From Brevundimonas vancanneytii (GTDB taxonomy: Bacteria; Bacteroidota; Bacteroidia; Chitinophagales; Chitinophagaceae): 64,000 nt of DNA. The position numbers were made by a program, and so were the translations under genes. Location: the NCBI GenBank assembly GCA_943368425.1, contig CALRLC020000006.1:47893-111892 (forward strand). Reading direction: 5' to 3'. Within the stretch, counting starts at the first letter, position 1, and each line of letters opens with the position of its first letter. Below, in pieces: positions 571 to 64,000 of the stretch. The notes under the pieces were generated by a model that saw only the letters and a program-made list of their open reading frames with translations, was not told the origin of the DNA and made no database searches.

Positions 571-651
571 AGTTGACAGTTGTTAGTTGACAGTTTACAG
601 GAAAACTAGTCTTTCTTCTTTCTATCAACTTTCAACTATTATCTATCAACT
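571..651. repeat. Heptamer inverted-arm element, AGTTGAY family, empty
   Basis: AGTTGAC-AGTTGTT-AGTTGAC-AGTTTAC at 571-598 and an inverted array (c)tatcaact-ttcaact-attatct-atcaact at 622-651; lies between the spoT stop and the purA start. Confidence 0.75.
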
Positions 652-657
652 CTATTG

Positions 658-2916
658 TCATTTCTCACTCTCTGTATCAAATCGATCTACCCGTTGAATA
701 CCATTGAGGGATTTCAGTCGGTCAACCAATTCTTCTAACTCTTCTTTATCGTGTACAAATATTTTGATGGTTCCTTCGAATAAACCTTCACTGGATTCAA
801 TGGTTAAACCTGCAATATTGATTCTCAGATCACCACTGATCACATTGGTAATCTTGTTGACTACACCCACATCATCCAAACCAATGATCTTGAGTCCTGT
901 AAGGAATGAAATCTCTTTGTTTTTCGCCCATTTGGTCTTTACCACTCTATGGCCATAGTTGGCGAGTAACTGTGCTGCATTCGGACAACCTGTGCGATGT
1001 ATTATTAATCCTTTGCCGGTACTTACAAAACCAAATACGTCGTCACCCGGAATCGGGTTGCAGCATTTGGCTAGTGTATACATGATCTTGTCACTACTTT
1101 CGCCAAAAATGATTAGCTCAGAATCTTTTTTACTATAGGTTTTTTGTGCCGGATCTGTGATGATCTCCTGTACTACCGGTTTTGGTTTAGGAATTTCGAT
1201 CTTATCTCCCAAAACCTGAAAATCTTTTAGTTCTTTCAGGTCAAGGGCTTTTGTAGCAATTTTATAATGAAGGTCCAGTGAAGAAGGCAATTTGTAAAAC
1301 TGAACCAGTTCATCAATATTATATTGGCTATAGGCAGCACCCATACTTTCCAGTTTTCTTTGGAGCAAGTATTTGCCATCCTCTGCTACTTTTCTTTTTT
1401 CTTCTCTAAGCGCATCTTTGATTTTGTTTCTGGCTTTCGCTGTTACCACAAATCCCAGCCAATCTTCGGATGGTTTTTGTTTATTACTGGTAATGATCTC
1501 AATCTGATCGCCACTTCTCAGTTTGTGACTGATGGGAACCAATTTATGATGTACTTTGGCACCAATACATTTGGTACCGATCGCTGAGTGAATAGAAAAG
1601 GCAAAGTCAAGAGCTGTACTACCCATCGGAAGCATTTTCACTTCCCCTTTTGGGGTGTATACATAGATTTCTTCTGCTAGGAATGAGGTTTTGAAATCTT
1701 GTAAGAAGTCAACACCCTCAGTATCCTGCGTACTCAACACTTCCCTGATCTGACCAAACCATTTATCAAATCTGTCTTCTTCGTTATTTCCTTCCTTGTA
1801 TTTATAATGGGCCGCCAGACCTTTTTCTGCGATTTCATTCATACGTTTCGTGCGAATCTGCACTTCTACCCATTTACCTTGTGGTCCCATTACGGTTGTA
1901 TGCAATGCTTCATAGCCATTGCTCTTGGGGTTACTTAGCCAATCGCGTAAACGTTCGGGGGAAGGCATATACTCATCGGTGATCATGGAATACACTTTCC
2001 AGCAATCTTCTTTTTCTTTTTCAGTAGGGGAGTCTAAGATCACACGAATGGCAAACAGATCATACACTTCTTCAAAAGCAACACCCTTTTTTTTGATTTT
2101 ATTCCAGATAGAATGAATGCTTTTTGGACGGCCATAAATTTCAAAATTGAAATTGGCAGCTTGCATTTTCTCTTTTATCGGACGAATGAACTCATTGATA
2201 TATCGTGTTCTTTCTCTTTTGGTTTCAGCCAATTTCTTGGCAATATCACGGTAGGCTTCCGGCTCCATGTATTTCATGGATAGATCTTCCAATTCGGTCT
2301 TGATATTGTATAAACCCATTCTATGTGCCAGCGGTGCATAGACCCAAACGGTTTCTGAAGCGATCTTCAATTGCTTTTCACGCTTCATGTGATCGAGTGT
2401 TCGCATGTTATGTAAACGATCTGCCAACTTGATCAGGATCACGCGTGGATCATCCGTAAGCGTTAAAAGGATCTTCTTGAAATTTTCAGCCTGTTGTGAT
2501 GTATTGGTATCCATCACTGTAGAGATCTTGGTAAGACCGTCTACTATTCTTGCGATCTCAGTTCCAAATTCACGTTCAATATCCTCCAGTGAAATGTCTG
2601 TGTCTTCAACAGTATCATGTAATAAAGCGCAAATGGTACTTCTTACGCCAAGGCCTATTTCCTCCACACAAATCATTGCAACAGCTATAGGGTGAAGGAT
2701 GTATGGCTCGCCGCTTTTTCGACGCATGGTTTTGTGAGCATCAGCTGCCATTTGAAAGGCATGACGTACCAATTCTTTATCTCCTTTTTTGAGTTTGGAT
2801 TTCAGACTTCTCAAAAGGGCACGGTAATGCCTTAATATTTCATTCTTCTCCTGATCAGCATTCAGGTTATAACGGGGTAATGCCGCCTCTGCAGTAGTAT
2901 CTTTCGCTTGCTCCAT
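658..2916 (-). CDS. spoT: Bifunctional (p)ppGpp synthetase/hydrolase, long RelA/SpoT homologue
   Basis: Intact HD hydrolase motif (LHDTVED), synthetase motifs (GRPKSIHSI, NGYEALHT, EVQIRT), TGS, CC and ACT regions; 752 aa. Confidence 0.95.
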   Translation of the reverse strand: MEQAKDTTAEAALPRYNLNADQEKNEILRHYRALLRSLKSKLKKGDKELVRHAFQMAADAHKTMRRKSGEPYILHPIAVAMICVEEIGLGVRSTICALLHDTVEDTDISLEDIEREFGTEIARIVDGLTKISTVMDTNTSQQAENFKKILLTLTDDPRVILIKLADRLHNMRTLDHMKREKQLKIASETVWVYAPLAHRMGLYNIKTELEDLSMKYMEPEAYRDIAKKLAETKRERTRYINEFIRPIKEKMQAANFNFEIYGRPKSIHSIWNKIKKKGVAFEEVYDLFAIRVILDSPTEKEKEDCWKVYSMITDEYMPSPERLRDWLSNPKSNGYEALHTTVMGPQGKWVEVQIRTKRMNEIAEKGLAAHYKYKEGNNEEDRFDKWFGQIREVLSTQDTEGVDFLQDFKTSFLAEEIYVYTPKGEVKMLPMGSTALDFAFSIHSAIGTKCIGAKVHHKLVPISHKLRSGDQIEIITSNKQKPSEDWLGFVVTAKARNKIKDALREEKRKVAEDGKYLLQRKLESMGAAYSQYNIDELVQFYKLPSSLDLHYKIATKALDLKELKDFQVLGDKIEIPKPKPVVQEIITDPAQKTYSKKDSELIIFGESSDKIMYTLAKCCNPIPGDDVFGFVSTGKGLIIHRTGCPNAAQLLANYGHRVVKTKWAKNKEISFLTGLKIIGLDDVGVVNKITNVISGDLRINIAGLTIESSEGLFEGTIKIFVHDKEELEELVDRLKSLNGIQRVDRFDTESEK

Positions 2917-2936
2917 ATCTGAATACGAATATACGG

Positions 2937-3008
2937 ATAGTCTGTGGTCATTGGTTCATAGTCCATGACCTATAAGCCATAGACTATGGGCTATCGACCA
3001 TGGACCAT
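2937..3008. repeat. Heptamer inverted-arm element, ATRGTCY family, empty
   Basis: ATAGTCT-GTGGTCA-TTGGTTC-ATAGTCC on the left; ccatagactatgggctatcgaccatggaccat on the right (reverse complement ATGGTCC-ATGGTCG-ATAGCCC-ATAGTCT); between divergent genes. Confidence 0.7.
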
Positions 3009-3067
3009 CAAAAATTACAGCATCGGTAAACACCACCCCGCCTTAGTTGTTACCTTTGGCAACTGTC

Positions 3068-5138: not shown

Positions 5139-6478
<1,340 letters not shown>

Positions 6479-11641: not shown

Positions 11642-11710
11642 GCCTCAAGCTGCAAGCTACAGGCGACAAGTAAGAATCAAATCAAAGATCAAAAAATCAA
11701 AAAATCAAAC
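11641..11710. repeat. Solo arms of two families in tandem: AAGCTRC heptamers and the ATCAA(A/G) 7-8-mer array
   Basis: AGCCTCA-AGCTGCA-AGCTACA-GGCGACA at 11641-11668, then aatcaaatcaaagatcaaaaaatcaaaaaatcaaac at 11675-11710. Confidence 0.7.
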
Positions 11711-11718
11711 TTAAAACC

Positions 11719-12000
11719 ATGAATAACGAACAACGCGATGAACAACTTTGGCAAATCGCTAAAGCAAGAGCCGGATTCAAATGGGCACTTTTCAGTTACC
11801 TGATTGTAAACGCATTTTTAGTAGTGGTATGGTTTTTTACATCAGGAATCGACTCTTACTTCTGGCCTATCTGGGTAATGCTAGGATGGGGTGTAGGTCT
11901 GGCTTTTCAATATTTCCACGCATATCACGGTACAAAATTTTTGACCGCAGCTGAAGAGTATGAGAAGTTGAAGCAGAAACAGGATGCAAGTGAAAAGTGA
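11719..12000 (+). CDS. Small 2TM-domain membrane protein
   Basis: Two hydrophobic helices and a YFWPIWVMLGWGVGLAFQYF motif typical of the 2TM family. Confidence 0.75.
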   Translation: MNNEQRDEQLWQIAKARAGFKWALFSYLIVNAFLVVVWFFTSGIDSYFWPIWVMLGWGVGLAFQYFHAYHGTKFLTAAEEYEKLKQKQDASEK

Positions 12001-12062
12001 AAAGTCAAAAGTCAAAAGTCAAAAAAATAAAATCAAGAAATCAAAGATCAAAAAATCAAACT
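11995..12062. repeat. Solo arms: AAAGTSA heptamers followed by the ATCAA family right arm
   Basis: aaagtga-aaagtca-aaagtca-aaagtca, then aatcaagaaatcaaagatcaaaaaatcaaact (12031-12062), identical to 45386-45417 and 62439-62470. Confidence 0.8.
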
Positions 12063-14999: not shown

Positions 15000-15071
15000 G
15001 CTCTTTTCCTTCACTTTTCACATTTCCCTTTTCACCTGCTGCGAACTTACTACGTACCTTCGTTGTTATAC

Positions 15072-16873: not shown

Positions 16874-17569
16874 ATGAGAACACTCATCATACTAATTTTC
16901 ACTTTTCACTTTTCCCTTTTCACTTCTTCTGCCCAAGATATGACCTCTTTGGTGATGAAAGTCAAAGCCAAACTCGATCAGGTCAATGATTATGAAGCAG
17001 ACGGTAGAATGAAAACAGATGTGGCCTTTATCAAAGCGCCAGTTGGCAAAGTCAAGATCTATTTCAAGAAACCAGATAAATTTCGTCTGAAAAAAGACGG
17101 AGGAATATCATTGCTGCCGAAAGGTGGTGTTTCTGTGAATATGAATTCAATTGTAACCACAGATCAGTTCGTTGCGTTGGCAGCCGGAGAAGCAATGGTG
17201 GGAGGAATAAAAACCAAAGTGGTGAAAATGCTTCCGGTGAATGAAAACAGTGATGTGGTGCTTACAACTATGTATATCGACGAAGCCAATTTACTGGTTC
17301 GAAAAGCTGTGACCACAACGAAAGAAAATGGTACTTATGAAATTGAAATGAGCTACGGAAAATTTGCCAGCTTCGGATTACCTGATAAGGTCACTTTTAG
17401 CTTTAATACCAAGAATTACAAATTACCCAAAGGACTTACTTTAGAATTCGATGACAATGAAAAGCCACTCACTGAAGAACAAAAATTGAAGAATAAAAAG
17501 GGTAGGGTGGAAATTGTATATACGAATTATGCGATCAACAAAGGAATCGCTGATGCCATCTTCAAGTAA
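16874..17569 (+). CDS. Secreted LolA-like (lipoprotein carrier fold) protein
   Basis: Signal peptide; GKVKIYFKKPDKFRL and MYIDEANLLVRK resemble LolA-like beta-sheet motifs. Confidence 0.6.
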   Translation: MRTLIILIFTFHFSLFTSSAQDMTSLVMKVKAKLDQVNDYEADGRMKTDVAFIKAPVGKVKIYFKKPDKFRLKKDGGISLLPKGGVSVNMNSIVTTDQFVALAAGEAMVGGIKTKVVKMLPVNENSDVVLTTMYIDEANLLVRKAVTTTKENGTYEIEMSYGKFASFGLPDKVTFSFNTKNYKLPKGLTLEFDDNEKPLTEEQKLKNKKGRVEIVYTNYAINKGIADAIFK

Positions 17570-19566: not shown

Positions 19567-19631
19567 TAGTCCATAGTCTATGGACCATAGTGAATAGATG
19601 ATCAACTATGTACCATGGACCATGGACTATC
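19567..19631. repeat. Heptamer inverted-arm element, ATRGTCY family, empty
   Basis: tagtccatagtctatggaccatagtgaatag ... actatgtaccatggaccatggactatc, between divergent pdxA and rsmA. Confidence 0.7.
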
Positions 19632-23209: not shown

Positions 23210-23314
23210 AGTGAAAGGTGAAAAGTGAAAGGACAAATGTATTTTTCCTGCTATGGGCTATAGTCCATGGTAGGAAAATTTTTTTGACTTTTCACTTTTG
23301 ACTTTTCACTTTTG
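23210..23314. repeat. AAAGTGA-family inverted arms enclosing a nested ATRGTCY-type hairpin
   Basis: Left arm agtgaaaggtgaaaagtgaaagg; right arm ttttgac-ttttcac-ttttgac-ttttcac-ttttg; inner hairpin ttttcctgctatgggctatagtccatggtaggaaaa at 23243-23278. Confidence 0.75.
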
Positions 23315-23357
23315 AACCTCACACTTTCCCCTATCTTTAAGAACCAAAACCCTCCAC

Positions 23358-27905: not shown

Positions 27906-28013
27906 AAGTCAAAGGGGAAAAGTGAAAGGTGAAGAGGGGTATTTCTGATGTATGAATGTGCTCTTGCTAGTAGATTTATTCTGTGATTTGACTTTTCACC
28001 TTTCACTTTTCAC
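27906..28013. repeat. AAAGTGA-family inverted-arm element, empty
   Basis: aagtcaaaggggaaaagtgaaaggtgaa ... tttgacttttcacctttcacttttcact, between divergent genes. Confidence 0.7.
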
Positions 28014-28026
28014 TATTTTCATCCCC

Positions 28027-28593
28027 ATGGCAAAAGATGAGATCATTTTAGGGATCGATCCGGGCACCCAATTGATGGGATATGCATTATTGCGTATTCA
28101 TAAAGGTCAACCTCAGGTTCTTTTAATGGATGTTCTTAAACTCACCAAAGAAAAAGACATTTATGCACGTCTTGAAATGATCCATACCCGGGTATGTGAA
28201 CTGGTTAAATTGTACAAACCATCTACTTTCGCTATTGAAGCTCCTTTTTTTGGAAAGAATGTTCAAAGTATGCTAAAGTTGGGCAGGGCACAAGGTGTGG
28301 CTATTGCCGCAGCGATGCAAGCCGGATTGAATGTTACAGAATATTCACCCAAAAAAGTAAAACAATCCATCACCGGTAATGGCAATGCAGATAAGGAGCA
28401 GATCTGGAAGATGCTGCAAAGAATTTTACAGATCGAAGAAAAACCGCAATACTTTGATGCGACGGATGCTTTAGCTGTTGCACTCTGTCATCATTATCAA
28501 TCATCTTCACCTCTTATTCAAAAAGGTAAACCTTTAAAAGGGTGGGAAGATTTTTTAAATAAAAATCCGGAGAGGGTGAAGAAGAAATCTTAG
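28027..28593 (+). CDS. ruvC: Holliday junction resolvase RuvC
   Basis: ILGIDPG, FAIE, KLGRAQGVA, KVKQSITGNG and DATDALAVALCH motifs. Confidence 0.95.
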   Translation: MAKDEIILGIDPGTQLMGYALLRIHKGQPQVLLMDVLKLTKEKDIYARLEMIHTRVCELVKLYKPSTFAIEAPFFGKNVQSMLKLGRAQGVAIAAAMQAGLNVTEYSPKKVKQSITGNGNADKEQIWKMLQRILQIEEKPQYFDATDALAVALCHHYQSSSPLIQKGKPLKGWEDFLNKNPERVKKKS

Positions 28594-28642
28594 ATGTCAG
28601 ATATAATATCAAATCTGACATCTAAGATTTGACATCTGAAAT
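28591..28642. repeat. AGATGTC-family inverted repeat between convergent ruvC and uppP
   Basis: Perfect 12-bp stem tagatgtcagat/atctgacatcta, plus a further tttgacatctgaaat copy. Confidence 0.65.
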
Positions 28643-29766: not shown

Positions 29767-29780
29767 GGGAGTTGTTTTTT

Positions 29781-29862
29781 AGTGAATAGGAATAGTGAGT
29801 AGTGAATAGTGAGTAGTGAGTATTTGGTTTCTTACTCACGACTCACTATTCACTTCTCACTA
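29781..29862. repeat. AGTGAGT-family inverted-arm element, empty
   Basis: agtgaat/agtgagt arrays at 29781-29822; inverted tactcac-gactcac-tattcac-ttctcac-ta at 29833-29862. Confidence 0.8.
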
Positions 29863-40964: not shown

Positions 40965-40991
40965 GGGTGTTTTTTCAAGGCTAAGATAGGG

Positions 40992-41073
40992 TAGTGAGTA
41001 GTGAATAGTCAGTAGTGAGTAAGATATTTTATTGTTCTTAGTTTTACTCACTACTGACTATTCGCTATCTCAC
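40992..41073. repeat. AGTGAGT-family inverted-arm element, empty
   Basis: tagtgag-tagtgaa-tagtcag-tagtgag-ta, spacer containing agatattt, inverted tactcac-tactgac-tattcgc-tatctcac. Confidence 0.8.
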
Positions 41074-42194: not shown

Positions 42195-43484
42195 TTATAA
42201 TATTTCTGAGAGGCTTTCTTTAGTTGCTTGTATAGTTGCATCAAGATCTTCATAAGAGAGTGCATTGTTGAGGAACCAACTTTCAAATGCGGAAGGAGGT
42301 AAGTAGATCCCTTTTTTCAGCATGGCATGAAAGTATTTGTTGAACAATGCATTGTTGGCTGCAGATGCAGATGCAAAATCGGTAACAGCTTTTTCACTGA
42401 AATGAACACTGATCATGGATCCAAATCTGTTGATCACAAATGGAGTTCCGCTTTCTGTGAGTACTTTATTCAAGCCCTCGTGTAAGTAAGCGGTTTTATC
42501 ATTCAGTTCTTGATAGAGCGAAGGATTGCTTTTTAATTCATTCAACAAAGTATACCCGGCGATCATCGCAATAGGGTTACCACTCAAAGTTCCAGCTTGG
42601 TATACATTTCCAAGTGGTGCGATTTTTTCCATGATAGCACGTTTGCCACCAAAAGCACCTACCGGCATACCCGCACCGATCACTTTTCCATAAGTAATAA
42701 GGTCTGCATCTACATTCAATACTTGTTGAGCACCCCCTTGTGCTAAACGGAATCCAGTCATTACTTCATCAAAAATGAATACAATGCCTTCTTCATCGCA
42801 AATGGTTCTGATACCTTCAAGAAATCCTGGTGCAGGTAATATACAACCCATGTTTCCTGCAACGGGTTCAACGATGATGGCAGCGATTTCATTCTTATGG
42901 ATAGACACTAATTTTTTGACTGCTGTTAGATCATTGTAAGCGCAAGTCAAAGTATCGGTAGAAACACCCCCTGTGATTCCTGGTACTGTTTGAATATCAA
43001 AAGTGGCCAATCCACTCCCTGCTTTTACAAGAAATGCATCGGCATGACCATGATAACAGCCTTCGAATTTGATGAATTTATTTCTGCCTGTATATCCTCT
43101 AGCCAAACGTAAGGCACTCATGCAAGCTTCGGTACCACTGCTCACCATTCTGATCAGGTCAACATTGGGTGCCATGCTTTTAATGAGTTCTGCCATTTCA
43201 ATTTCCAACTCTGTAGGTGCACCATACGACGTAGATAAAACTGCTTTTTCCTGAATGGCTTTTACTACCGGCTCATAGGCATGCCCCAAAATCATAGGTC
43301 CCCATGAAGCGATATAATCGATATAACGATTGCCATCAGCATCATAGAGATAAGCACCTTTAGCTTTTTCAATAAAGATGGGCGTACCACCTACACTTTT
43401 AAAAGCTCTTACCGGAGAGTTTACGCCTCCGGGGATAGATTGTTGTGCGCGTTGGAAGAGTGCAATACTTTTTGATGTTTCCAT
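42195..43484 (-). CDS. hemL: Glutamate-1-semialdehyde 2,1-aminomutase
   Basis: [33 protein letters not shown] and GTLSGNP motifs. Confidence 0.97.
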
Positions 43485-43489
43485 ATTTT

Positions 43490-43958
43490 AGTGAGTAGTC
43501 AGTAGTGAGTAGTTAGTTATCTGAGCTAATCATTACTGAGATCATTTTAAAATTTTCTATTATCAAATCTTTTATGCTATCTAGTTTTTCAAGTGTGATA
43601 TATTTAAGATCTACCGCTAATCCAATTGCTGTATCAACCTCAATTAGTGATCCTCTTGCAATTTCAAAAAACCTCTTTCTTTCAAGATTTGATTTGCGAG
43701 AACATCCTTCTGCAATATTCAAATGAACAGAAGATGATGCTCTTCTGATTTGTTGAACTAAAGCAAATCTTTCATCAGTAGGGAAATTTCTTGATAGCTT
43801 ATAGCATTCAAGTACCAAATCCCTAGATTTTAAAAAGACTGATAGTTTTGTATGAGCAAGCTGTAAAAACATAGTTGTCAAAACTAGTCTCTAACAGCGA
43901 TGAAGATTTACGTATTTCCCGCAAAACTAAACTCACTACTCACTATTGACTACTCACT
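43490..43958 (-). mobile_element. Putative cargo-loaded element: AGTGAGT-family inverted arms enclosing a four-helix-bundle gene
   Basis: Arms at 43490-43517 and 43931-43958 match at 26/28 nt as inverted repeats and enclose the gene at 43513-43872. Mobility is inferred, not shown. Confidence 0.55.
43513..43872 (-). CDS. Four-helix-bundle protein (23S rRNA IVS protein/Avd-like family)
   Basis: FPTDERFALVQQIRRASSSVHLNIAEG and RFFEIARGSLIEV motifs. The ATG at 43872 is 6 nt after TAGTTTTG. Confidence 0.9.
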   Translation of the reverse strand: MFLQLAHTKLSVFLKSRDLVLECYKLSRNFPTDERFALVQQIRRASSSVHLNIAEGCSRKSNLERKRFFEIARGSLIEVDTAIGLAVDLKYITLEKLDSIKDLIIENFKMISVMISSDN

Positions 43959-44927
43959 AATCAGCCTGATCGCATCTTTAGCGAAATAGGTTGCAATCAA
44001 ATCGGCGCCTGCTCGTTTAATTGATGTAAGGCTCTCAATGATCGCTTTTTCTTCATTCAGCCAACCCATTTTTGATGCTGCTTTGATCATTGCATATTCA
44101 CCGCTTACCTGATAAGCGCTTACCGGAACTTCTACTGCATTCTTCACTTCGCGGATGATATCCAGATAAGCCATGGCAGGTTTTACCATGACGATATCAG
44201 CTCCTTCTTCAATATCCATTAACGTTTCTTTGATGGCTTCTGTTCGGTTGGCGAAATCCATTTGATACGTTTTTTTATCGCCGAATCCGGGAGCGCTATC
44301 CAATGCATCTCTGAATGGACCATAGAAACATGAGGCATACTTGGCGCTATAACTCATGATACCCACTTTCGTGAATCCACTATCTTCTAAACCGTTTCTT
44401 ATTGCGCCAATTCTACCATCCATCATGTCACTGGGGGCAACAAAATCGCATCCTGCTTCTGCATGACTGATACTCATCTTTACCAAAGCTTCTACTGTTT
44501 CATCATTCACGATCTCGCCGTCTTTTACGATGCCATCGTGTCCGTAAGAAGAGAATGGATCTAAGGCAACATCAGTCATTACTATTATTTCCGGAACAGC
44601 ATCTTTGATCGCTTTAATACTTCTTTGCATCAATCCGTTTTTGTTCCATGCTTCTTTGCCTGTATTATCTTTCAGTTCATCTTTACATTTGATGAACAGC
44701 AGTACACAACGAATACCCATCTCCCACAATACTTTCACTTCTTTTACAGTAAAATCTAAAGACATCCTGTAATACCCCGGCATCGAAGCGATCTCCGTTT
44801 TCACATTTTCTCCTTCATCAATAAATAACGGAGCAATAAAATCAGCCGGCTTCAATATCGTTTCAGCCACCATTGCACGGATAGCATGTGATTGGCGGAG
44901 GATGCGGTTGCGTCGTTGGAGGTACAT
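43950..44927 (-). CDS. hemB: Porphobilinogen synthase
   Basis: DVALDPFSSYGHDG, PSDMMDGR, MSYSAKYAS, MVKP and YQVSGEY motifs. The Cys-cluster Zn site is absent, suggesting a Mg/K-type enzyme. Confidence 0.97.
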   Translation of the reverse strand: MYLQRRNRILRQSHAIRAMVAETILKPADFIAPLFIDEGENVKTEIASMPGYYRMSLDFTVKEVKVLWEMGIRCVLLFIKCKDELKDNTGKEAWNKNGLMQRSIKAIKDAVPEIIVMTDVALDPFSSYGHDGIVKDGEIVNDETVEALVKMSISHAEAGCDFVAPSDMMDGRIGAIRNGLEDSGFTKVGIMSYSAKYASCFYGPFRDALDSAPGFGDKKTYQMDFANRTEAIKETLMDIEEGADIVMVKPAMAYLDIIREVKNAVEVPVSAYQVSGEYAMIKAASKMGWLNEEKAIIESLTSIKRAGADLIATYFAKDAIRLISE

Positions 44928-44932
44928 GAATC

Positions 44933-45415
44933 TTTGATTTTTTGATCTTTGATTTCTTGATTTATTGTTTGGTCTGCTTGATTTTTAAATCAAACGTTTT
45001 ATTCGCGGCAGTAAATATGGCTGTTAGTTCATTTGCTTCTGCTATTAATTGATCTATGATACTATTGGTACTAAGTTTTGTTGCCTTGATGATTTCTAGC
45101 CAATAATGTGACTCGTCGATTTCTTCCAGAACAATTTTTAATTTATGTGCAAAATCAGCTTGTGATTTTGATCTGTTTGTTGCACGATAATTAGCTCCTA
45201 CCGATCCTGAAGAACGTATCAATTGTTTCGCAATTTCAAAGCCAGCAGGTGTTTTCGGCAGACAATCACAAAATAATACAATATCAATATTGAACTGTTT
45301 TGTTCTGTCTTGTAAAGTTTTCCGATTCATTCTGTAAAATTATGCTAGATCACCTCGAACGATACGGAGCGTTTGTTATGAAATAAATCAAGAAATCAAA
45401 GATCAAAAAATCAAA
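44933..45415 (-). mobile_element. Putative cargo-loaded element: perfect 33-bp ATCAA-family inverted repeats enclosing a four-helix-bundle gene
   Basis: 44933-44965 is the exact reverse complement of 45383-45415 (ataaatcaagaaatcaaagatcaaaaaatcaaa). Confidence 0.6.
44962..45330 (-). CDS. Four-helix-bundle protein (23S rRNA IVS protein/Avd-like family)
   Basis: QLIRSSGSVGANYRA, FAHKLKIVLEEIDESHYWLE and EANELTAIF motifs. Confidence 0.9.
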   Translation of the reverse strand: MNRKTLQDRTKQFNIDIVLFCDCLPKTPAGFEIAKQLIRSSGSVGANYRATNRSKSQADFAHKLKIVLEEIDESHYWLEIIKATKLSTNSIIDQLIAEANELTAIFTAANKTFDLKIKQTKQ

Positions 45416-45416
45416 C

Positions 45417-46325
45417 TTATATCCATTCCTTTGGATGTAAGCAAGCTTGCCACAATTCCCATTCTTTTGAACCTTCAGTCGGTTGATGATTGTAATCAAA
45501 TCTTACTGTTGGCGGTAGACTCATCAGAATACTTTCAATTCTTCCATTGGTCTTTAGTCCAAATATAGTTCCACGATCATGCACCAGATTGAATTCTGTG
45601 TACCTGCCCCTGCGTATTTCCTGCCAATATTTATTCTCTGGAGTGAATTCGGTATGTTTTCTTTTCTCAACAATGGGAATATAGCTATCGATAAACGCAT
45701 AACCACAAGCTTTTGCAAATGCCATCCAGAATTGAACGTCTTTACTTTCATCCGGACGTTGGTAATCGTAAAAAATACCGCCAATGCCTCTTCTTTCTTT
45801 ATTACGATGCCAGTTCACAAAATATTCATCACATTCTTTTTTGAATGCCGGATAAAATGCAGGATCGAATGGATCACAAGCATTTTTATACGTCTGATGA
45901 AAGTGAATGGCATCTTCTTCAAATAGATAATAAGGCGTAAGATCAGTACCACCACCAAACCATCTGTCAATCACTTCTCCTTTTTCATCATACAACTCAA
46001 ACATGCGATAATTACAATGTACAGTAGGCACGAAGGGATTATAAGGATGAATCACTAGACTCAATCCACATGCAAACCAACTATGTCCATTGATCTTTAA
46101 TTGTGTTCGCATCAAGTCTGTAACCGGACCAAACACCACAGAAGTATTCACGCCTCCTTTTTCCAACACTGCACCATTGCCAATTACACGTGTGCGGCCG
46201 CCGCCACCTTCTTCTCGGTCCCATTTATCTTCCTGAAATCTAGCTTTTCCATCTACTTTCTCCAGTGCAGCGCAGATATCATCCTGCAGCTGATGAATAA
46301 AGGAGATCCATTGTTCTTTTATCAT
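45417..46325 (-). CDS. hemF: Oxygen-dependent coproporphyrinogen III oxidase
   Basis: PTVHCNYR, WFGGGTDLTP, RGIGGIFYD and RRGRYTEFNLVHDRGTIFGL motifs. Confidence 0.96.
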   Translation of the reverse strand: MIKEQWISFIHQLQDDICAALEKVDGKARFQEDKWDREEGGGGRTRVIGNGAVLEKGGVNTSVVFGPVTDLMRTQLKINGHSWFACGLSLVIHPYNPFVPTVHCNYRMFELYDEKGEVIDRWFGGGTDLTPYYLFEEDAIHFHQTYKNACDPFDPAFYPAFKKECDEYFVNWHRNKERRGIGGIFYDYQRPDESKDVQFWMAFAKACGYAFIDSYIPIVEKRKHTEFTPENKYWQEIRRGRYTEFNLVHDRGTIFGLKTNGRIESILMSLPPTVRFDYNHQPTEGSKEWELWQACLHPKEWI

Positions 46326-46336
46326 AAGTTCGTATT

Positions 46337-46407
46337 AGTGAGTAGTCAGTAGTGAGTAGTCAGTAGGAAAAAGATATTTATTCACTACTGACAATTCACT
46401 ACTCACT
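46337..46407. repeat. AGTGAGT-family inverted-arm element, empty (hemE/hemF junction)
   Basis: agtgagt-agtcagt-agtgagt-agtcagt, spacer ggaaaaagatattt, inverted attcact-actgaca-attcact-actcact. Confidence 0.8.
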
Positions 46408-47432
46408 TAATGTCGAAATTCTTTCACCGCATCTACAAATGCCCTTGCATGATCAACAGGAACATTTGGAAGGATGCCATGTCCAAGGTTGGCGATATGT
46501 CTACCCGGACCAAATGCACGCAGCATGTCTTTTACTTCTTTTTGAATCACAGGGATCGGTGATAATAATTTCGCAGGATCAAAATTCCCTTGCAGTGTAA
46601 CATGATTACCTGCGAACTGACGAGCCAATTCAGGCTTGATACACCAATCAATTCCTAAACCATGAGCGCCAGTAGCGGCCATACTATCCAAGCTATGCCA
46701 TGCACCTTTTGCAAATACGATCGTGGGTACTTCATCTTTCAATGCCGCAACGATCTGACGCATATATTGTAATGACAGGTTTTCAAAATCATGCGGACTT
46801 AATAATCCACCCCAGCTATCAAAAATTTGAACCGTATCTGCACCTGCTTTCACTTGTGCTTTCAGGTAGGCGATTGTAGTATCAGTGATCATTTGTAATA
46901 ACTGGTGTGCCAGTTCAGGTTGTGTATAGCAGAATGCTTTTGCTTCATCAAAAGTTTTAGAACCTTTGCCCTGCACCATGTAACAAAGTAAGGTCCATGG
47001 CGCCCCGGCAAAGCCGATCAATGGAACTCTTCCGTTGAGTTCTTGTTTAATAAGTTTAATGGCATCCATCACATAGCCTAAAGTTTCATCAACATCCGGT
47101 ACACGAACGCGCGCCATGTCTTTATTGGTTTTTATTGGGTCCGGTAGAACAGGTCCTTTACTTTCGATCAACTGTACTTCCAGTCCCATTGCTTGTGGCA
47201 CTACCAGAATATCAGAAAACAAGATAGCAGCATCCACACCAACGATATCTATTGGTTGTAATGTGATTTCACATGCCAGTTCAGGTGTCTGACAACGTTC
47301 AAAGAATCCGTATTTCTCACGCAACACCATGTACTCAGGAAGGTATCGTCCGGCCTGACGCATCATCCACACAGGAGTTCTTTCAGTTGCTTCACCGCGA
47401 AGGGTTCGGAGGAGTAGGTCGTTTTTTAGCAT
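46407..47432 (-). CDS. hemE: Uroporphyrinogen decarboxylase
   Basis: [34 protein letters not shown] and NLGHGI motifs. Confidence 0.97.
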
Positions 47433-47441: not shown

Positions 47442-47512
47442 AGTGAGTAGTGAGTAGTCAGTAGTCAGTAGGGAGAGATATTTACTCACTACTGACTATT
47501 CACTACTCACTA
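47442..47512. repeat. AGTGAGT-family inverted-arm element, empty (hemD/hemE junction)
   Basis: agtgagt-agtgagt-agtcagt-agtcagt, spacer gggagagatatt, inverted tactcac-tactgac-tattcac-tactcac-ta. Confidence 0.8.
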
Positions 47513-48210: not shown

Positions 48211-49162
48211 TTCTGATTTCCTGTATGATTTCTTCTGCACCCATCGCTAAGATTTCTTGTCCGGCTTCTGTGCCTATTGCAGCCCCAACGGAAATAGGTA
48301 CGTTAGTGCTGATATCAACTTTCTGACGACCATCAAGAGATACCACATTGCCCTGGAAAAAAATCTGATCACCCTGTATTTGTGCGAGTGCAGAAATAGG
48401 TGTAGCGCAACCGCCCATCAACTGACGTAAAAAATTTCTTTCTGCATGCGCACAGATCGCTGTTTCGTTATGGTGTAGTTGCTGACAGCTATTGAAGATT
48501 TCAGTTTCTCCTTCTCTGCACACAACCATCACGGCACCTTGTGCCGGAGCAGGTAACATCCAATCCAAATCAATTGCTTTTTCCGGACGAAGGTTGATTC
48601 TTTCAAGTCCTGCAGCTGCAAAGATGGCACCTTGCCAATTGCTTTCATCCAGTTTACGCAGTCGGGTATTGACGTTGCCACGTAAGTTATCAAACTGATG
48701 ATTGGGATAACGATTGAGCCATTGTGCTTTACGGCGAACGCTGCTGGTGGCGAATAGTCCATGGTCCATAGTCCATGGTCTATGGACCATGGACCATTCA
48801 CCATTCACATAACCCAGCGCTTCCGGTATATCCTCTTCCTTATAAACAAGAATGTCTTTGTATGATGCACGTTTTAATACTGCAGCTTCTTGTATGCCTT
48901 TAGCAAGTTGTGTAGGCACGTCTTTCATGGAGTGAACAGCAATATCAATTTTGTTACTGAGCAATGCAGCATCTAGCGTTTTAGTGAAGATACCCTGAAC
49001 ACCGATCTCATAAAGTGGTGTAACTAGATCAATATCTCCTTCACTTTTGATGTACACGAGTTCAGAAGCCACTCCTTTTTCTTTCAGGAGTTCTTGCACC
49101 CATGTGGCTTGCCACACGGCGAGCTGACTGTCGCGTGTTCCTATACGTACTACCTTGGTCAT
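48197..49162 (-). CDS. hemC: Hydroxymethylbilane synthase (carries a repeat-derived insertion)
   Basis: RIGTRDSQLAVWQA, DIAVHSMKD, TSSVRR, RGNVNTRL and GGCATP motifs. Confidence 0.96.
   Translation of the reverse strand: MTKVVRIGTRDSQLAVWQATWVQELLKEKGVASELVYIKSEGDIDLVTPLYEIGVQGIFTKTLDAALLSNKIDIAVHSMKDVPTQLAKGIQEAAVLKRASYKDILVYKEEDIPEALGYVNGEWSMVHRPWTMDHGLFATSSVRRKAQWLNRYPNHQFDNLRGNVNTRLRKLDESNWQGAIFAAAGLERINLRPEKAIDLDWMLPAPAQGAVMVVCREGETEIFNSCQQLHHNETAICAHAERNFLRQLMGGCATPISALAQIQGDQIFFQGNVVSLDGRQKVDISTNVPISVGAAIGTEAGQEILAMGAEEIIQEIRNAGK
48754..48808. repeat. ATRGTCY-family inverted-arm element lying in frame inside hemC
   Basis: atagtcc-atggtcc-atagtcc-atggtct-atggacc-atggacc-attcacc-attcac; encodes VNGEWSMVHRPWTMDHGL. 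Confidence 0.82.
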
Positions 49163-52401: not shown

Positions 52402-52588
52402 AAAAGTCAAATGTGAAAAGTCAAATGTGAAAAGTCAAATGTGAAAAGTGAAAAGTGAAAGGTGGCTTTATTTTCATAATTCTTTTACGATTTTATTTTC
52501 TTTAAATTATTGATAATCAGCGAATTAAATTCTTTTTTGAATCTGTAACCACTTTTTGACTTTTGACTTTTGACTTTTCACTTTTCAC
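52402..52588. repeat. AAAGTSA-family inverted arms with a 14-mer expansion
   Basis: (aaaagtcaaatgtg)x3 followed by aaaagtg-aaaagtg-aaaggtg; right arm (ttttgac)x3(ttttcac)x2 at 52554-52588. Confidence 0.85.
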
Positions 52589-56043: not shown

Positions 56044-56994
56044 ATGGCTACTAAGAAACCAGCCCCTAAGGCGGCAAAAAAACCGGCTCCAAAGGCGGCA
56101 CCAGCCAAGAAAACAGCTTCAAAACCAGCGCCTAAGAAGGCTGCTGCTAAACCTGCTCCTAAAAAAGCAGCGAAACCGGCACCTAAACCGGCAGCAAAAA
56201 AAGCGGCTCCTGCAAAGAAAGCAGTGGTGAAACCAGCGCCTGCAAAAAAAGCGGCTCCTGCTAAACCTGCTCCTAAGCCAGTAGCTAAAGCGCCTGTAAA
56301 AGCAGCAAAACCTGCACCGGCTCCGGCTCCTGTGAAAAAGGCAGCTGCACCAGCGAAGCCTGCTGCGAAAGCTCCTGTAAAGCCTGCAGCTCCCGCACCT
56401 GTTGCTAAGCCTGTATCAACGCCTTTACCTCCGATGAAAAAACCTGAACCTAAAGGGCCACCTGCTCCGCCTGTTAAACCAGTGCGTAAAGCACCAGAGC
56501 CGTTGAAAGAGGTAAAAGTTCCTAAGACTAGTACCAAAAGCAGCGTCCCTTATCAGCCCGGATATACACCATTAGAAAAAAGAGTAGAAACTGTGAGAAG
56601 CAACGAAACATTAGTAAAGTACAGTGATGCGGACTTAAATGAATTCCGCGAGTTAATCAATAAAAAACTGGAAGCAGCTAAAAAAGAGCTGACTTACCTG
56701 CAAGGTTTGATCACCCGTAAAGATGAAATGGGTGGTGATAACGACGATGCTCGTTACATGACCATGGAAGACGGCAGTATGAGTATGGAAAGAGAGCAGC
56801 TCAGCCAAATGGCCAGCCGTCAGATTACTTATATTGATCACCTTGAAAAAGCATTGATGCGTATCGAAAACAAAACCTACGGTATTTGCCGTGTTACAGG
56901 TAAGTTGATCGATAAAGCTCGCTTACGCGCGGTGCCGCATGCTACATTGAGTTTGGAAGCAAAACTGGGTTTAGTGAAGCCTAGTGCTGAATAG
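56044..56994 (+). CDS. DksA/TraR-family protein with a long Lys/Ala/Pro-rich N-terminal extension
   Basis: C-terminal KYSDADLNEFR...ALMRIENKTYGICRVTGKLIDKARLRAVPHATLS; about 160 aa of KPAP/KKAA repeats at the N-terminus. Confidence 0.88.
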   Translation: MATKKPAPKAAKKPAPKAAPAKKTASKPAPKKAAAKPAPKKAAKPAPKPAAKKAAPAKKAVVKPAPAKKAAPAKPAPKPVAKAPVKAAKPAPAPAPVKKAAAPAKPAAKAPVKPAAPAPVAKPVSTPLPPMKKPEPKGPPAPPVKPVRKAPEPLKEVKVPKTSTKSSVPYQPGYTPLEKRVETVRSNETLVKYSDADLNEFRELINKKLEAAKKELTYLQGLITRKDEMGGDNDDARYMTMEDGSMSMEREQLSQMASRQITYIDHLEKALMRIENKTYGICRVTGKLIDKARLRAVPHATLSLEAKLGLVKPSAE

Positions 56995-57116
56995 TGAGTA
57001 GTGAGTAGTCAGTAGTGAGTTTGCACTATTTAAAAATAAAAGAGAAGCCCTCAATTTTACTTGAGGGCTTCTCTTATTATGTTACTCACTATTGACTACT
57101 CACTATTCACTATTCA
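56990..57116. repeat. AGTGAGT-family inverted arms enclosing a terminator
   Basis: Left arm 56990-57020, right arm 57083-57116. Confidence 0.8.
57040..57075. terminator. Bidirectional intrinsic terminator between the dksA-like and msbA-like genes
   Basis: 15-bp stem aagagaagccctcaa/ttgagggcttctctt with a 6-nt loop. Confidence 0.85.
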
Positions 57117-58998: not shown

Positions 58999-59373
58999 AT
59001 GGAAGAAGGAAAACGTCAGCGTCAGGTAGCGGGAGCCATTCAGGAGGAAATGAATGATATTTTCAGGAGACTGAATCTTTCCATGCTCGATGGAGGAATG
59101 GTGTCAATATCCTCTGTTAAAGTCACCCCCGATCTGTTGGAAGCCAGAATTTATCTCAGCTTGTTTCAGGTAAAAGATGCAAAAGCTACGATGAAAACTA
59201 TCGAAAGCCGCGCATGGGAAATCAAAAAAGAACTCGCTGATAAAATGAAACATCAACTCCGCAGAATACCCGTTCTTCATTTCTATCTAGATGATACTTT
59301 GGATTATGTGTTCAAGATGGAAGAAATCTTTAAGAATATTAGTGAGGAGAAGAAAGGGGAAGAGAGTGAGTAA
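58999..59373 (+). CDS. rbfA: Ribosome-binding factor A
   Basis: RQRQVAGAIQEE, VKVTPDLLEARIYLS and RRIPVLHFYLDDTLDY motifs. Confidence 0.93.
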   Translation: MEEGKRQRQVAGAIQEEMNDIFRRLNLSMLDGGMVSISSVKVTPDLLEARIYLSLFQVKDAKATMKTIESRAWEIKKELADKMKHQLRRIPVLHFYLDDTLDYVFKMEEIFKNISEEKKGEESE

Positions 59374-59437
59374 TGAATAGTGAGTAGTCAGTAGTGAGTG
59401 ATTTTTATACTCACTACTGACTATTCACTACTCACTC
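59365..59437. repeat. AGTGAGT-family inverted-arm element, empty
   Basis: agtgagt-aatgaat-agtgagt-agtcagt-agtgagt, a 9-nt spacer, then actcact-actgact-attcact-actcact. Confidence 0.85.
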
Positions 59438-59474
59438 AAACTAATACATTTAACCAACCACACGACCCAATCCC

Positions 59475-60680: not shown

Positions 60681-60725
60681 TGTCTGAGTTTTTAATATGT
60701 AATTGCAAAGAGTTTTACATAAAGA

Positions 60726-60750
60726 AGCCGCTTAGTTTTTCTAAGCGGCT
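60726..60750. terminator. Intrinsic terminator between convergent genes
   Basis: agccgcttag-ttttt-ctaagcggct. Confidence 0.7.
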
Positions 60751-60795
60751 CTGATAAAAATATTTTGAATTTTTACTTTTGATTTTTGACTTCTC

Positions 60796-61638: not shown

Positions 61639-61672
61639 ATGCTTGTTTTGTGGTTGCGAAGATAATGGAAAT

Positions 61673-61805
61673 ACTGAGTAGTGAGTAGTCAGTAGTGGGT
61701 AGGGTATAAATTGTGAATGAGCATGGTAATAGGTGGTGGCGTATATGAGATTAGGTAAAAAATATTGACTATTCACTACTCACTACTCACCATTGACAAT
61801 TCACT
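61673..61805. repeat. AGTGAGT-family inverted arms with a roughly 60-nt spacer
   Basis: Left actgagt-agtgagt-agtcagt-agtgggt; right attgact-attcact-actcact-actcacc-attgaca-attcact, running into TATATTTG (61805-61812). Confidence 0.8.
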
Positions 61806-61830
61806 ATATTTGCCCCCACAAAACCACTAT

Positions 61831-62394
61831 ATGTCAGAAGATCTGGATTTAATATTGGCCGATACGGAAGAAAGTATGACAAAGGCCATCAGTCATTTGG
61901 AAACAGAACTTACCAAGATCAGGGCGGGAAAAGCAAATCCAACCATGTTGGATGGTATTATGGTCGATTATTATGGGTCACCAACACCCATTAATCAGGT
62001 AGCGAATATCAGTGTGCTGGATGTTCGTACCATCAGCATTCAGCCTTGGGAAAAGAACATGTTGGCAGCTATTGAAAGAGCGATCATGGCAGCAAATATT
62101 GGTATCACTCCACAAAATGATGGTGTTCAATTGCGTTTGTTCTTGCCACCATTGACTGAAGAAAGAAGAAGAGAGTTGGTGAAAAAAGCTGCGGGTGAGG
62201 GCGAGCATTCAAAAGTAGCAATTAGAAATATTCGTCGTGATGCCATTGAGCAAGTGAAGAAATTACAGAAAGATGGTTTGAGTGAAGACGCAGCAAAAGA
62301 TGCTGAGAAAAGTATTCAGGATATCACAGATAAATTCATTTCACTCGTAGATAAACATTTAGCCGCTAAAGAAAAAGAAGTGATGGCGGTGTGA
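61831..62394 (+). CDS. frr: Ribosome recycling factor
   Basis: KIRAGKANP, YYGSPTP, PPLTEERR and RNIRRDA motifs. Confidence 0.96.
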   Translation: MSEDLDLILADTEESMTKAISHLETELTKIRAGKANPTMLDGIMVDYYGSPTPINQVANISVLDVRTISIQPWEKNMLAAIERAIMAANIGITPQNDGVQLRLFLPPLTEERRRELVKKAAGEGEHSKVAIRNIRRDAIEQVKKLQKDGLSEDAAKDAEKSIQDITDKFISLVDKHLAAKEKEVMAV

Positions 62395-62396
62395 TT

Positions 62397-62468
62397 TTTG
62401 ATTTTTTGATCTTTGATTTCTTGATTCGTCTTTTCATAAATCAAGAAATCAAAGATCAAAAAATCAAA
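62397..62468. repeat. ATCAA-family element, empty (perfect 30-bp hairpin with a 12-nt loop)
   Basis: tttgattttttgatctttgatttcttgatt-cgtcttttcata-aatcaagaaatcaaagatcaaaaaatcaaa; arms identical to those at 44933 and 45386. Confidence 0.88.
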
Positions 62469-63375
62469 CTTTCTCCTTCTTATTCACCAGGTATACCCCA
62501 CAAAGAATAATTCCTAAACATCCGATCTGCAGGAGGGTGATTTGTTCTCCGTCTAATAATCCCCAGAAAACAGCAACAAAGGGAATCCCATAAGTGACCA
62601 TGGATGCGAATAACGTTCCTGCTCTTTTTACGAGCATATAGAATATGATTGAAGCGAAAGCTGTTCCTAAAACGCCAAGAATAAACGAAGCACCTGTTGC
62701 TTTAATAACGGATGTTTCAGACAAGGCCATTTCAGTATATCCTGTATAGTATAAAATGATGGCGGATGGGATGATTAGAAATACAAATGCCAATGAGGCT
62801 ATGTTCAAAGAGCCGACCTCTTTCATGTGCCTGCCTACCATGTTCACATTGATGCCATAAAAAAGAGTAGCAAGCAATACCAGACCTGCGTAGGATATAT
62901 TTTGAAAACTAACCGTCTTACCTGCAAACATCAATAAACATAATCCGATAAAGCCAATAACAACGCCGGTGATTTTGGTAGTATTCGCTTTGAGCTGAAA
63001 GAATGAGATACCCACCAATATTGTGAACAAAGGGGTCAGAGCATTTAAGATTCCGGCCAATGAGCTGTCGATCTGTGTTTCAGCGATACAGAATAAATAG
63101 GCAGGAAAGAAATTGCCAAGTAGTCCAGATAGAATTACTAGAAACCATTTGTTTCGTGGTATTTGTTTCAATGCTTTTACTGCAAAGGGGGTAAGGATCA
63201 GTCCTGCACTCAGAATACGTATAGATGCTACCTGGTAAGGTGTTAAAACATGCATGCCTTCTTTCATCAGAATAAAGGAACTTCCCCAGATAACAGATAA
63301 CAGTAAAAAGATCCCCCAATTAATGATCCTGTCTCTCAATGTGTTGTTTTTGTAAAGGTGAGGGATTGCTTTCAT
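62464..63375 (-). CDS. DMT/EamA family transporter
   Basis: IWGSSFILMK, AGILNALTPLFT and VTYGIPFVAVFWG motifs; about 10 TMs. Start uncertain. Confidence 0.88.
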   Translation of the reverse strand: MKAIPHLYKNNTLRDRIINWGIFLLLSVIWGSSFILMKEGMHVLTPYQVASIRILSAGLILTPFAVKALKQIPRNKWFLVILSGLLGNFFPAYLFCIAETQIDSSLAGILNALTPLFTILVGISFFQLKANTTKITGVVIGFIGLCLLMFAGKTVSFQNISYAGLVLLATLFYGINVNMVGRHMKEVGSLNIASLAFVFLIIPSAIILYYTGYTEMALSETSVIKATGASFILGVLGTAFASIIFYMLVKRAGTLFASMVTYGIPFVAVFWGLLDGEQITLLQIGCLGIILCGVYLVNKKEKV

Positions 63376-63423
63376 TATTCAATTTTATTGGGTATTTTCA
63401 TTACTCACCAAACCAACACAACC

Positions 63424-63858
63424 ATGGGGATGCTTAAAGAATTTAAAGACTTTGCCATGCGAGGCAATCTGGTAGATATTGCCGTTGCCTTTGTTATGGG
63501 TGCTTCATTTGGAAAGATCGTTACTTCATTTGTAGACGGAATTGTAATGCCCTTGATCGGTATGTTGACCGGTGGGGTAGATTTCAATGACAAAGTATGG
63601 ATCTTAAAAGAGGCAGTAGCTGAAGTAAAAGATGCTGCCGGAGTTGTAGTAACAGAAGCTTCTGCAGAAGTATCTGTCAAATATGGTGCATTCATTACCA
63701 ACCTATTAGATTTTATTATTGTAGCATTTGCCGTCTTTCTTGTTATTAAAGCTATCAACAAGATGAAAGGACCAGCAGAATCCGGTGCCCCAAAAGGTCC
63801 ATCAGAATCTGAGAAGCTCTTGGCTGAGATCAGGGATTCATTGAAGAAGGTAGATTAG
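63424..63858 (+). CDS. mscL: Large-conductance mechanosensitive channel
   Basis: LKEFKDFAMRGNLVDIAVAFVMGASF, YGAFI and LLAEIRDSL motifs. Confidence 0.95.
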   Translation: MGMLKEFKDFAMRGNLVDIAVAFVMGASFGKIVTSFVDGIVMPLIGMLTGGVDFNDKVWILKEAVAEVKDAAGVVVTEASAEVSVKYGAFITNLLDFIIVAFAVFLVIKAINKMKGPAESGAPKGPSESEKLLAEIRDSLKKVD

Positions 63859-64000
63859 TTGATGGTAGACTATCGACTATGGACTAAGTGGATAAATATT
63901 ACCCCCTTCCGGTCGAAATAAGGCCTGAAGGGGTTTTCTTTGCAGCTAAAGTATGTGTCGTGAATACAGTGAATTATCAAATTAAATTAGACCAGTTTGA

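Follow-up and report, generated by a model that had tools for sequence, protein, structure and literature searches.

Four-helix-bundle genes of the 23S rRNA intervening-sequence family lie between inverted heptamer arrays in a Chitinophagaceae genome

Intervening sequences (IVSs) bearing an open reading frame (ORF) are reportedly present in the 23S rRNA of Leptospira (Ralph & McClelland, 1993), another such IVS lies in the 23S rRNA of Coxiella burnetii (Afseth, 1995; Warrier, 2016), and heptamer arrays called short tandemly repeated repetitive (STRR) sequences have reportedly been found in cyanobacteria (Mazel, 1990). Here we describe a window of 64,000 nt (assembly GCA_943368425.1, contig CALRLC020000006.1, positions 47,893 to 111,892) in which tandem arrays of 7-nt words form inverted arms, and in which two such arm pairs, as a preliminary description made from the sequence had claimed, enclose genes for four-helix-bundle (4HB) proteins of the family PF05635/TIGR02436 (43513-43881 and 44962-45330). 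The relatives of its HemB protein are Chitinophagaceae (Ferruginibacter, Ilyomonas, Puia). The host belongs to the Chitinophagaceae (Bacteroidota) and is not a cyanobacterium; the cyanobacterial STRR is therefore an analogy for these arrays and not an explanation of them.

The Coxiella IVS is 428-444 nt long; its terminal stem measures 28 bp, RNase III cuts at tandem copies of the heptamer GACAGAT, and an S23p ORF begins just inside the stem (PMC4990558). According to the account of Lin et al. (2006) given in that paper, the protein Xcc0516 (PDB 2GSC) was solved as a pentamer. Heptamer arrays of GGGAATC in Xanthomonas and GGGGAYT in Nostoc often occur in convergent pairs (PMC4692102), and Geobacter metallireducens carries heptanucleotide elements of four or five units (PMC2700814); no gene family is named in either report. 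Genes annotated 23S_rRNA_IVP have been found wedged between cas cistrons and read as cas-associated functions, their flanking repeats going unmentioned (Zhang et al., 2013, PMC3936711). Full-text literature searches found no paper linking heptamer arrays to PF05635 genes; the Coxiella paper mentions heptamers in one IVS.

The window carries two loaded cassettes, that is, arm pairs with a 4HB gene inside, within a heme operon on the minus strand (42195-47432) whose gene order is hemE, hairpin, hemF, 4HB cassette, hemB, 4HB cassette, hemL:

43488-43963, minus strand: loaded cassette 1, between hemB and hemL, with 31-nt AGTGAGT-type inverted arms at 43488-43518 and 43930-43960 (alignment score 52)
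43513-43881, minus strand: 4HB gene of cassette 1 (PF05635, E=1e-32; TIGR02436, E=2e-30; PDB 2GSC, E=4e-18)
44930-45415, minus strand: loaded cassette 2, between hemF and hemB, with perfect 33-34-nt TTTGATYT arms of period 8 (score 68)
44962-45330, minus strand: 4HB gene of cassette 2 (PF05635, E=3e-16)

The cassettes span 476 and 486 nt, respectively, and their closing stems, of 31 bp (z=-6.6) and 34 bp (z=-5.7), are present in both the minimum-free-energy and the centroid folds. The TIGR02436 score of the window 4HB lies above the model cut-off.

A PF05635 search placed the family at nine sites in the genome, and all nine genes lie between matched inverted arms, whereas of 380 other genes in the 90-160-aa range, drawn from a crude gene set, 6 passed the same arm test (Fisher p=1e-14). 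The expectation that bundle genes would be arm-flanked more often than other small genes was thus borne out. Each arm pair uses one word, the nine resident words being GAGCTAC, CCTAGYA, GCYAACA, AGTGAGT, AAAGTCA, ATAGCTA-like, TTTGATYT, CAGATGK and ATGAATG. The nine elements span 448-640 nt, and every one lies between or adjoining protein-coding genes, none in helix 9, 25 or 45 of 23S rRNA. Because the nine resident 4HB proteins share 15-61% identity, they are not recent copies of one another.

The same association is found in other genomes, in samples weighted to the best-scoring PF05635 members and under a permissive alignment criterion. Among 18 other genomes of the Chitinophagales, 46 of 61 PF05635 genes are armed (score of at least 28) against 1 of 433 control intervals shifted by 1.2-4 kb; in seven other groups, whose genomes were reached via hemB loci, 37 of 62 4HB genes are armed against none of 358 controls, giving 1 armed interval in 791 shifted controls together. 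Armed genes number 9/16 in Cyanobacteria, 12/26 in Flavobacteriia, 3/5 in Balneolaceae, 5/5 in Cyclobacteriaceae, 3/3 in Sphingobacteriales, 2/3 in Chlorobi, 1/1 in Holophagaceae and 2/3 in Akkermansia.

Across 83 foreign and 9 own loaded cassettes, the element measures about 450 nt, with a median arm of 31 nt and a median ORF of 120 aa. The 5' arm stands 23 nt from the ATG, often 0-6 nt, and the stop codon stands 14 nt from the 3' arm, often overlapping it; the best arm period is 7 in 55, 8 in 9 and 6 in 4 of 83 loaded cassettes. These spacings leave such a cassette too tight to house a promoter of its own. The 5' spacers show no enrichment of the Bacteroidota -7 promoter box TAnnTTTG (1 of 63 cassettes, against 2 expected), and although cassette 1 contains one such box, an internal promoter was rejected in view of the lack of enrichment across the 63. 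The 4HB gene and the gene upstream of it share one orientation in 76 of 91 cases, and at tandem junctions the 4HB gene lies in sense 64 times and in antisense 5 times. The tight spacers, the lack of box enrichment and the sense orientation together indicate that the ORF relies on host transcription, and that the host transcript therefore holds both arms.

The arms also have a polarity that has not been noted before. On either strand it is the 5' arm that is rich in G and poor in C, in 141 genome hairpins as opposed to 31, and in 68 loaded cassettes of all phyla as opposed to 9. Stop triplets close all three frames in 5' arms of 100 of 177 hairpins and in 3' arms of 18 of 177, an effect that is not separated from base composition. 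With a period of 7, three units suffice to bring a single stop triplet into every frame, which offers a simple reason why arms are tolerated at gene ends.

Arm similarity rises with the identity of the enclosed protein, from 0.20 (below 40% identity) to 0.33 (50-60%) and 0.44 (60-80%; Mantel test, 0/500 permutations). The word GGATAAT is common to a Chlorobi cassette and a cassette of the cyanobacterium Okeania, whose proteins are 67% identical, and AATTACG cassettes occur in three families of Chitinophagales. These comparisons indicate that the arms go with the gene and not with the site or the genome, and that gene and arms have been inherited and transferred as one unit. What looked in Okeania like a recently duplicated loaded cassette (L184/L185; L-numbers denote loci of other genomes compared with the window) proved to be one 8.3-kb region assembled twice and was discarded.

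Orthologous junctions are polymorphic, as had been anticipated, and may be loaded, empty or bare depending on the genome. The hemB-hemL junction holds related 4HB genes in the window, L001 and L004 (48-67% identity), and the proteins of these hemB-hemL relatives are under purifying selection (dN/dS about 0.13-0.25). Their arm word is AGTGAGT/ACTCACT in the window and GGTGAAT/ATTCACC in L001 and L004, a difference of two compensated changes per unit in both arms. Elsewhere this junction has solo arrays (L006, L011), is bare (L005, L007, L009, L010) or, in L002, is occupied by an empty hairpin whose word is unrelated. At hemF-hemB, the window and L007 have a loaded junction, L002 has an empty one and four others are bare. 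The two best HemB matches (L001 and L002) come from metagenome-assembled genomes titled Caulobacter sp. and Citrobacter freundii, yet they show a Chitinophagaceae hem operon and heptamer hairpins, and these labels look wrong.

Like the 23S rRNA IVS, the cassettes combine an S23p/PF05635 protein, a length of about 430-480 nt and a 28-31-bp terminal-repeat stem around the ORF with heptamers in the stem, an ORF a few nt inside it, a sporadic and horizontal distribution and ORF-less versions. Unlike the 23S rRNA IVS, they stand between protein-coding cistrons and, in frame, in two genes, and not in rRNA helices 9, 25 and 45; one genome can hold many of them, each built on a separate word, along with large cargo-less families, and RNase III excision is here suggested by stem length and pairing. 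Like the STRR, Xanthomonas, Nostoc and Geobacter arrays, those described here consist of four to six 7-nt units, are mostly intergenic and near the end of the upstream gene, often form convergent stem-loop pairs and sometimes lie inside genes. Those reports name no associated gene family; here and in the sampled cyanobacterial loci (9/16) the arrays bracket PF05635 genes, and a dozen or more different words occur in one genome. As with the 23S_rRNA_IVP genes of cas operons, members of the same family stand between cistrons of unrelated operons.

The preliminary description had counted about 30 heptamer arrays in several unit families. Tandem Repeats Finder recovered arrays of period 7 (some of period 8) at essentially all of those positions in the window; the shorter arrays at 2937, 19567, 28591, 29466 and 51680 were missed by the program and seen directly in the sequence. 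Alignment of each array to the reverse complement of its surroundings gave 17 inverted pairs in the window at a score of at least 30, with arms of 20-35 nt, and short ones besides. At least seven arrays are solo, among them 11679-11709, 11988-12060, 15010-15035, 16896-16925, 60763-60792 and 63868-63886. The whole 3.49-Mb genome holds 708 period-7 arrays, in which 177 adjacent array pairs are inverted partners, a score reached by 4% of random array pairs; the claim that arms pair by family beyond chance holds accordingly. Loop lengths of the inverted pairs are bimodal, most being below 100 nt and a second group of 340-490 nt consisting almost entirely of 4HB genes. The empty hairpins of the window have RNA fold z-scores of -7 to -16, and an Rfam scan of the window matched no family. 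The repeat pattern is confirmed as real and not a matter of low complexity. Some of the arrays are short or weak (571-651, 29466, 51680), as would be expected of chance products of an A+T-rich genome, but contig C6 has 57 period-7 arrays against 5 after shuffling, shifted intervals are almost never armed and hairpin folds reach z-scores of -5 to -16, and we give an artefact of this kind practically no credence.

Arms of the loaded cassettes recur at cargo-less sites of the same genome, in keeping with the proposal of one architecture in different words. The remaining elements of the window, for most of which no strand is assigned, are as follows:

62392-62468, no strand: cargo-less hairpin with the arms of cassette 2 (33 nt, perfect recurrence; z=-8.9)
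29780-29862, no strand: cargo-less AGTGAGT hairpin (z=-10.4)
40991-41073, no strand: cargo-less AGTGAGT hairpin (z=-11.9)
46336-46407, no strand: cargo-less AGTGAGT hairpin at the hemE-hemF junction (arm alignment and fold)
47442-47512, no strand: cargo-less AGTGAGT hairpin upstream of hemE (z=-8.7)
59364-59437, no strand: cargo-less AGTGAGT hairpin (z=-9.8)
56988-57116, no strand: AGTGAGT hairpin at a convergent junction, with a G+C-rich terminator-like hairpin in its loop (z=-15.8)
61675-61807, no strand: AGTGAGT hairpin with a 60-nt loop (arm alignment)
52402-52588, no strand: AAAGTSA hairpin with a 90-nt loop (Tandem Repeats Finder and arm alignment)
23210-23315, no strand: AAAGTGA hairpin with an ATRGTCY palindrome nested in its loop (arm alignment)
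27906-28014, no strand: AAAGTSA hairpin (arm alignment)
19567-19627, no strand: ATRGTCY hairpin (arm alignment and sequence)
2937-3010, no strand: ATRGTCY palindromic element (sequence)
28590-28640, no strand: short AGATGTC hairpin (sequence)
571-651, no strand: weak AGTTGAC pair (array and arm alignment)
11675-12060, plus strand: two direct, not inverted, copies of an ATCAA right arm plus ACTTAAAACCATGA, around a 93-aa 2TM-domain gene at 11719-12000 (sequence and domain search)
31871-31944, plus strand: AAGCTRC palindrome in frame in LeuRS, adding 14 aa in the CP1-entry linker (alignment with 28 relatives; fold z=-4.9)
48754-48808, minus strand: ATRGTCY palindrome in frame in HemC, adding 14-15 aa (alignment with 4 relatives; fold z=-8.0)

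Six of the nine resident cassettes have arms that match 24-128 other arrays in the genome; for the arm shared by cassette 2 and the hairpin at 62392-62468 the number is 68. The median number of cargo-less arrays matching a resident arm is 34, compared with 0 for the arms of the 83 foreign cassettes (p=2e-5). Relaxed word matching, with at most one mismatch per 7-mer, had assigned 69% of arrays to a resident cassette; it was too permissive and was replaced by alignment with foreign-arm controls. The AGTGAGT hairpins have in common not only their arms but also a loop motif, AGATATTT, and this motif and the perfect recurrence of arms indicate that the empty hairpins are copies of one another and not products of local slippage. 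Heptamer arrays number 20 per 100 kb here, as against 1-6 per 100 kb in same-genus genomes without 4HB genes, samples of which contained no inverted pairs. A HemC match was found in none of 15 same-genus genomes (G001-G015, 1.3-2.9 Mb), in contrast to the full hem operon of the window genome; reduced genomes with no heme pathway, 4HB genes or heptamer hairpins seem to occur in this genus.

Among 150 short hairpins, 147 are intergenic, with 43 at convergent, 84 at tandem and 20 at divergent junctions and 3 inside genes; convergent junctions are occupied twice as often as tandem ones (43/478 versus 84/1919). The distance from the host stop codon to the arm is at most 5 nt in 108 of 170 empty hairpins, and in 54 the stop codon lies inside the array. 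Hairpin loops can accommodate other hairpins (23210-23315, 56988-57116), and the cargo of a few arm pairs is another small gene (YjbR-like, CBM-like or a 60-aa lysine-rich ORF). In the loop of 56988-57116 there is a perfect 15-bp G+C-rich hairpin, AAGAGAAGCCCTCAA...TTGAGGGCTTCTCTT, which is unrelated to the arms and resembles an original terminator; either it was inserted into the loop or the arms arose around it. The AGTTGAC word of the pair at 571-651 is also the arm word of a 4HB cassette in another genome (L084). Within 11675-12060, which also includes a solo AAAGTSA array (11988-12024), both copies of the ATCAA arm plus ACTTAAAACCATGA end in the ATG of a gene, at 11719 for the 2TM-domain ORF and at 12070 for the ORF that follows; this arm seems to bring a translation start context with it.

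The in-frame state that had been described for two genes was upheld by alignment, which places the additional residues of LeuRS and HemC at the palindromes. In another family of the order, LeuRS carries an in-frame GTTCAGA x4 array and a small palindrome in the same linker (locus L157, G025:C1:86859-87461), the linker being a tolerant site that was colonised independently in the two families.

As noted earlier, the window contains no transposase or reverse transcriptase (RT), and the genome has one of each elsewhere. The single Y1 transposase (PF01797, G000:C15:60765-61109) is flanked by AACCCCnnnGGGGTT-type palindromes and not by heptamer arrays. Several G+C-rich palindromes, AACCCCTCCGGGGTT / AACCCCAGAGGGGTT, lie upstream of this gene (C15:60300-61250), which resembles the transposases (RAYTs) associated with repetitive extragenic palindromes (REPs) and is about 2 kb from a 4HB cassette. 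Gene and palindromes look like a REP-RAYT system of the classical kind, separate from the heptamer elements, and the RAYT was rejected as mobiliser of the heptamer hairpins because its flanking REPs are of this different, G+C-rich kind. The single RT (C4:116039-116935) sits in an integrase-bearing island distant from every 4HB gene and was rejected as a partner. That island (G000:C4:112311-116935), which adjoins mnmE and encodes a tyrosine integrase, the 298-aa RT and a 343-aa partner, is probably a retron- or DRT-type defence module. Small GIY-YIG-family genes (88-103 aa; C1:210180-211137, C1:43106-43372, C5:35176-35487) are flanked by other inverted or dispersed repeats (TTGTCACCCTGAGGAG, GTCACCTCGACGTTAGGAG), and AAGCTGC heptamer arms enclose one of them as well.

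Drawing on the observed anatomy, gene association, orientation, polarity, co-inheritance and site polymorphism, we lean, by a modest degree, towards the reading that these are IVS-type cassettes of host transcripts, seated in operon spacers and not in rRNA, with derived cargo-less hairpins that have multiplied in the genome. Each cassette would be a PF05635 4HB ORF of about 120 aa packed between inverted arms of about 31 nt with a cassette-specific 7-nt word, lying in sense between host cistrons and presumably transcribed as part of the host mRNA. In the transcript the arms may form a long double-stranded stem which RNase III would cut, as experiments have shown it to do in the homologous S23p-bearing IVSs of Coxiella and Leptospira 23S rRNA. 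Cutting would release the cassette RNA and part the cistrons on either side, making the insertion tolerable, and stops in the G-rich 5' arm, spread over three frames by the period of 7, would close any upstream reading frame. Cargo-less arms, whether hairpins, solo arrays or in-frame inserts, would be derivatives that spread or persist alone, by a route of copying that we infer. Several observations weigh against this account. Between a quarter and a half of the 4HB genes sampled in other genomes have no detectable arms, and no resident cassette belongs to the word families AAATAAG, AGTTGAC and GTGAATG. We saw no insertion event, no target-site duplication and no loaded cassette that had recently been duplicated; by eye, five AGTGAGT copies likewise give no sign of a target duplication. 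Across 17 related genomes the densities of 4HB genes and arrays are weakly correlated (rho=0.37, p=0.14), not significantly so since several 4HB-bearing genomes are equally array-poor, and a genome-level dependence of arrays on 4HB genes was accordingly dropped. Finally, sense-strand mismatches show no excess of G·U over A·C in empty hairpins (55 versus 72) or in loaded ones (75 versus 100). The stems thus show no sign of long-term selection for an RNA helix or of an RNA-specific constraint, and the symmetry suits a palindrome at the DNA level equally well. The structural part of the preliminary description and its enrichment prediction hold strongly, and its interpretation as a whole is partly supported: an autonomous form carrying the 4HB gene is unproven, no enzyme, target duplication or recent loaded copy having been seen and the proteins showing the low identity given above.

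Such strand-symmetric palindromes could also act in DNA, as terminal repeats or protein-binding iterons. The cassettes could then be transposon-like, with iterated binding sites composing the arms as terminal inverted repeats, a 4HB pentamer that reads the word in DNA or RNA and recruits a host enzyme, an adaptor much as Avd is for the RT of diversity-generating retroelements, and cargo-less copies served in trans by the resident cassette of the same word; we think this rather unlikely. In its favour are, besides the unbiased mismatches, the abundance of cargo-less arrays matching resident but not foreign arms, the arms of about four to five units beside a solved homologue that is a pentamer, the variety of cargo (4HB, YjbR-like, CBM-like, terminator hairpin or none), the in-frame copies in LeuRS and HemC and the independent array at the same LeuRS linker. 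The co-variation of word and protein across phyla fits too, but is equally expected from common descent of the unit. Moreover, no catalytic partner has been identified, the Y1 gene belonging with a different REP and the RT with a defence island; target duplications and recent loaded copies were not seen, and some word families have no resident cassette. REP/REPIN-RAYT systems (PMC3116915) are similar in having short multi-copy extragenic palindromes and a single coding 'master' per family; here, by contrast, the coding partner is a four-helix bundle without known catalytic activity, is enclosed by the repeat and not flanked by REPs, and the arms are internally periodic. Set beside a miniature inverted-repeat transposable element, which has terminal inverted repeats, target-site duplications and an autonomous relative encoding a transposase, the present elements have inverted arms common to loaded and empty copies, and their cargo is no known transposase. 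Avd of diversity-generating retroelements, a pentameric nucleic-acid-binding adaptor, has a homologous four-helix-bundle fold (weak PF22296 and NF033474 matches, far below the Avd cut-offs), but no adjacent RT and no template or variable repeats are found here. Quite unlikely, in our view, is the alternative that the arrays arose by heptamer slippage in place and serve the host as 3'-end elements (terminators or mRNA stabilisers, like REP), 4HB genes gathering in their loops as in safe harbours, much as in the tetraloops of 23S helices 9, 25 and 45. Such elements would explain why empty hairpins directly follow stop codons and favour convergent junctions, why loops accept nested hairpins, and why gene-free arrays and inverted pairs are published for Xanthomonas, Nostoc and Geobacter (PMC4692102, PMC2700814). 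They would not explain why 4HB genes are armed even in relatives that have background arrays and no empty hairpins in 100-kb samples, why arms track the protein, why 20 hairpins lie between divergent genes and some inside genes, or why near-identical arms and AGATATTT loops recur at many sites.

A more far-reaching proposal, which we put forward as doubtful, is that each PF05635 pentamer recognises the heptamer array of its own cassette in a sequence-specific way, every subunit reading one 7-nt unit, so that protein and arms would be a self-contained system that colonises transcribed DNA of all kinds (operon spacers, tolerant linkers, rRNA helices) and seeds cargo-less hairpins. The STRR and other heptamer repeats known from cyanobacteria, Xanthomonas and Geobacter might then be products, like the 23S IVSs, of a single class of element.

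If gene and arms are one element, this would join two puzzles, the excess of heptamer repeats in bacteria and the nature of 23S IVSs with an S23p ORF, whose origin and function were, as late as 2016, described as unclear. Thousands of genes annotated as 'hypothetical four helix bundle protein', those of cas operons included, would then be passengers of cassettes and not parts of host pathways, and their position between cistrons would predict RNase III-dependent segmentation of operon mRNAs, for example that of the heme operon. The genome described here offers a good test bed for these ideas, with its nine cassettes of as many words, empty copies of the same words by the dozen, and two essential enzymes that carry copies in frame.

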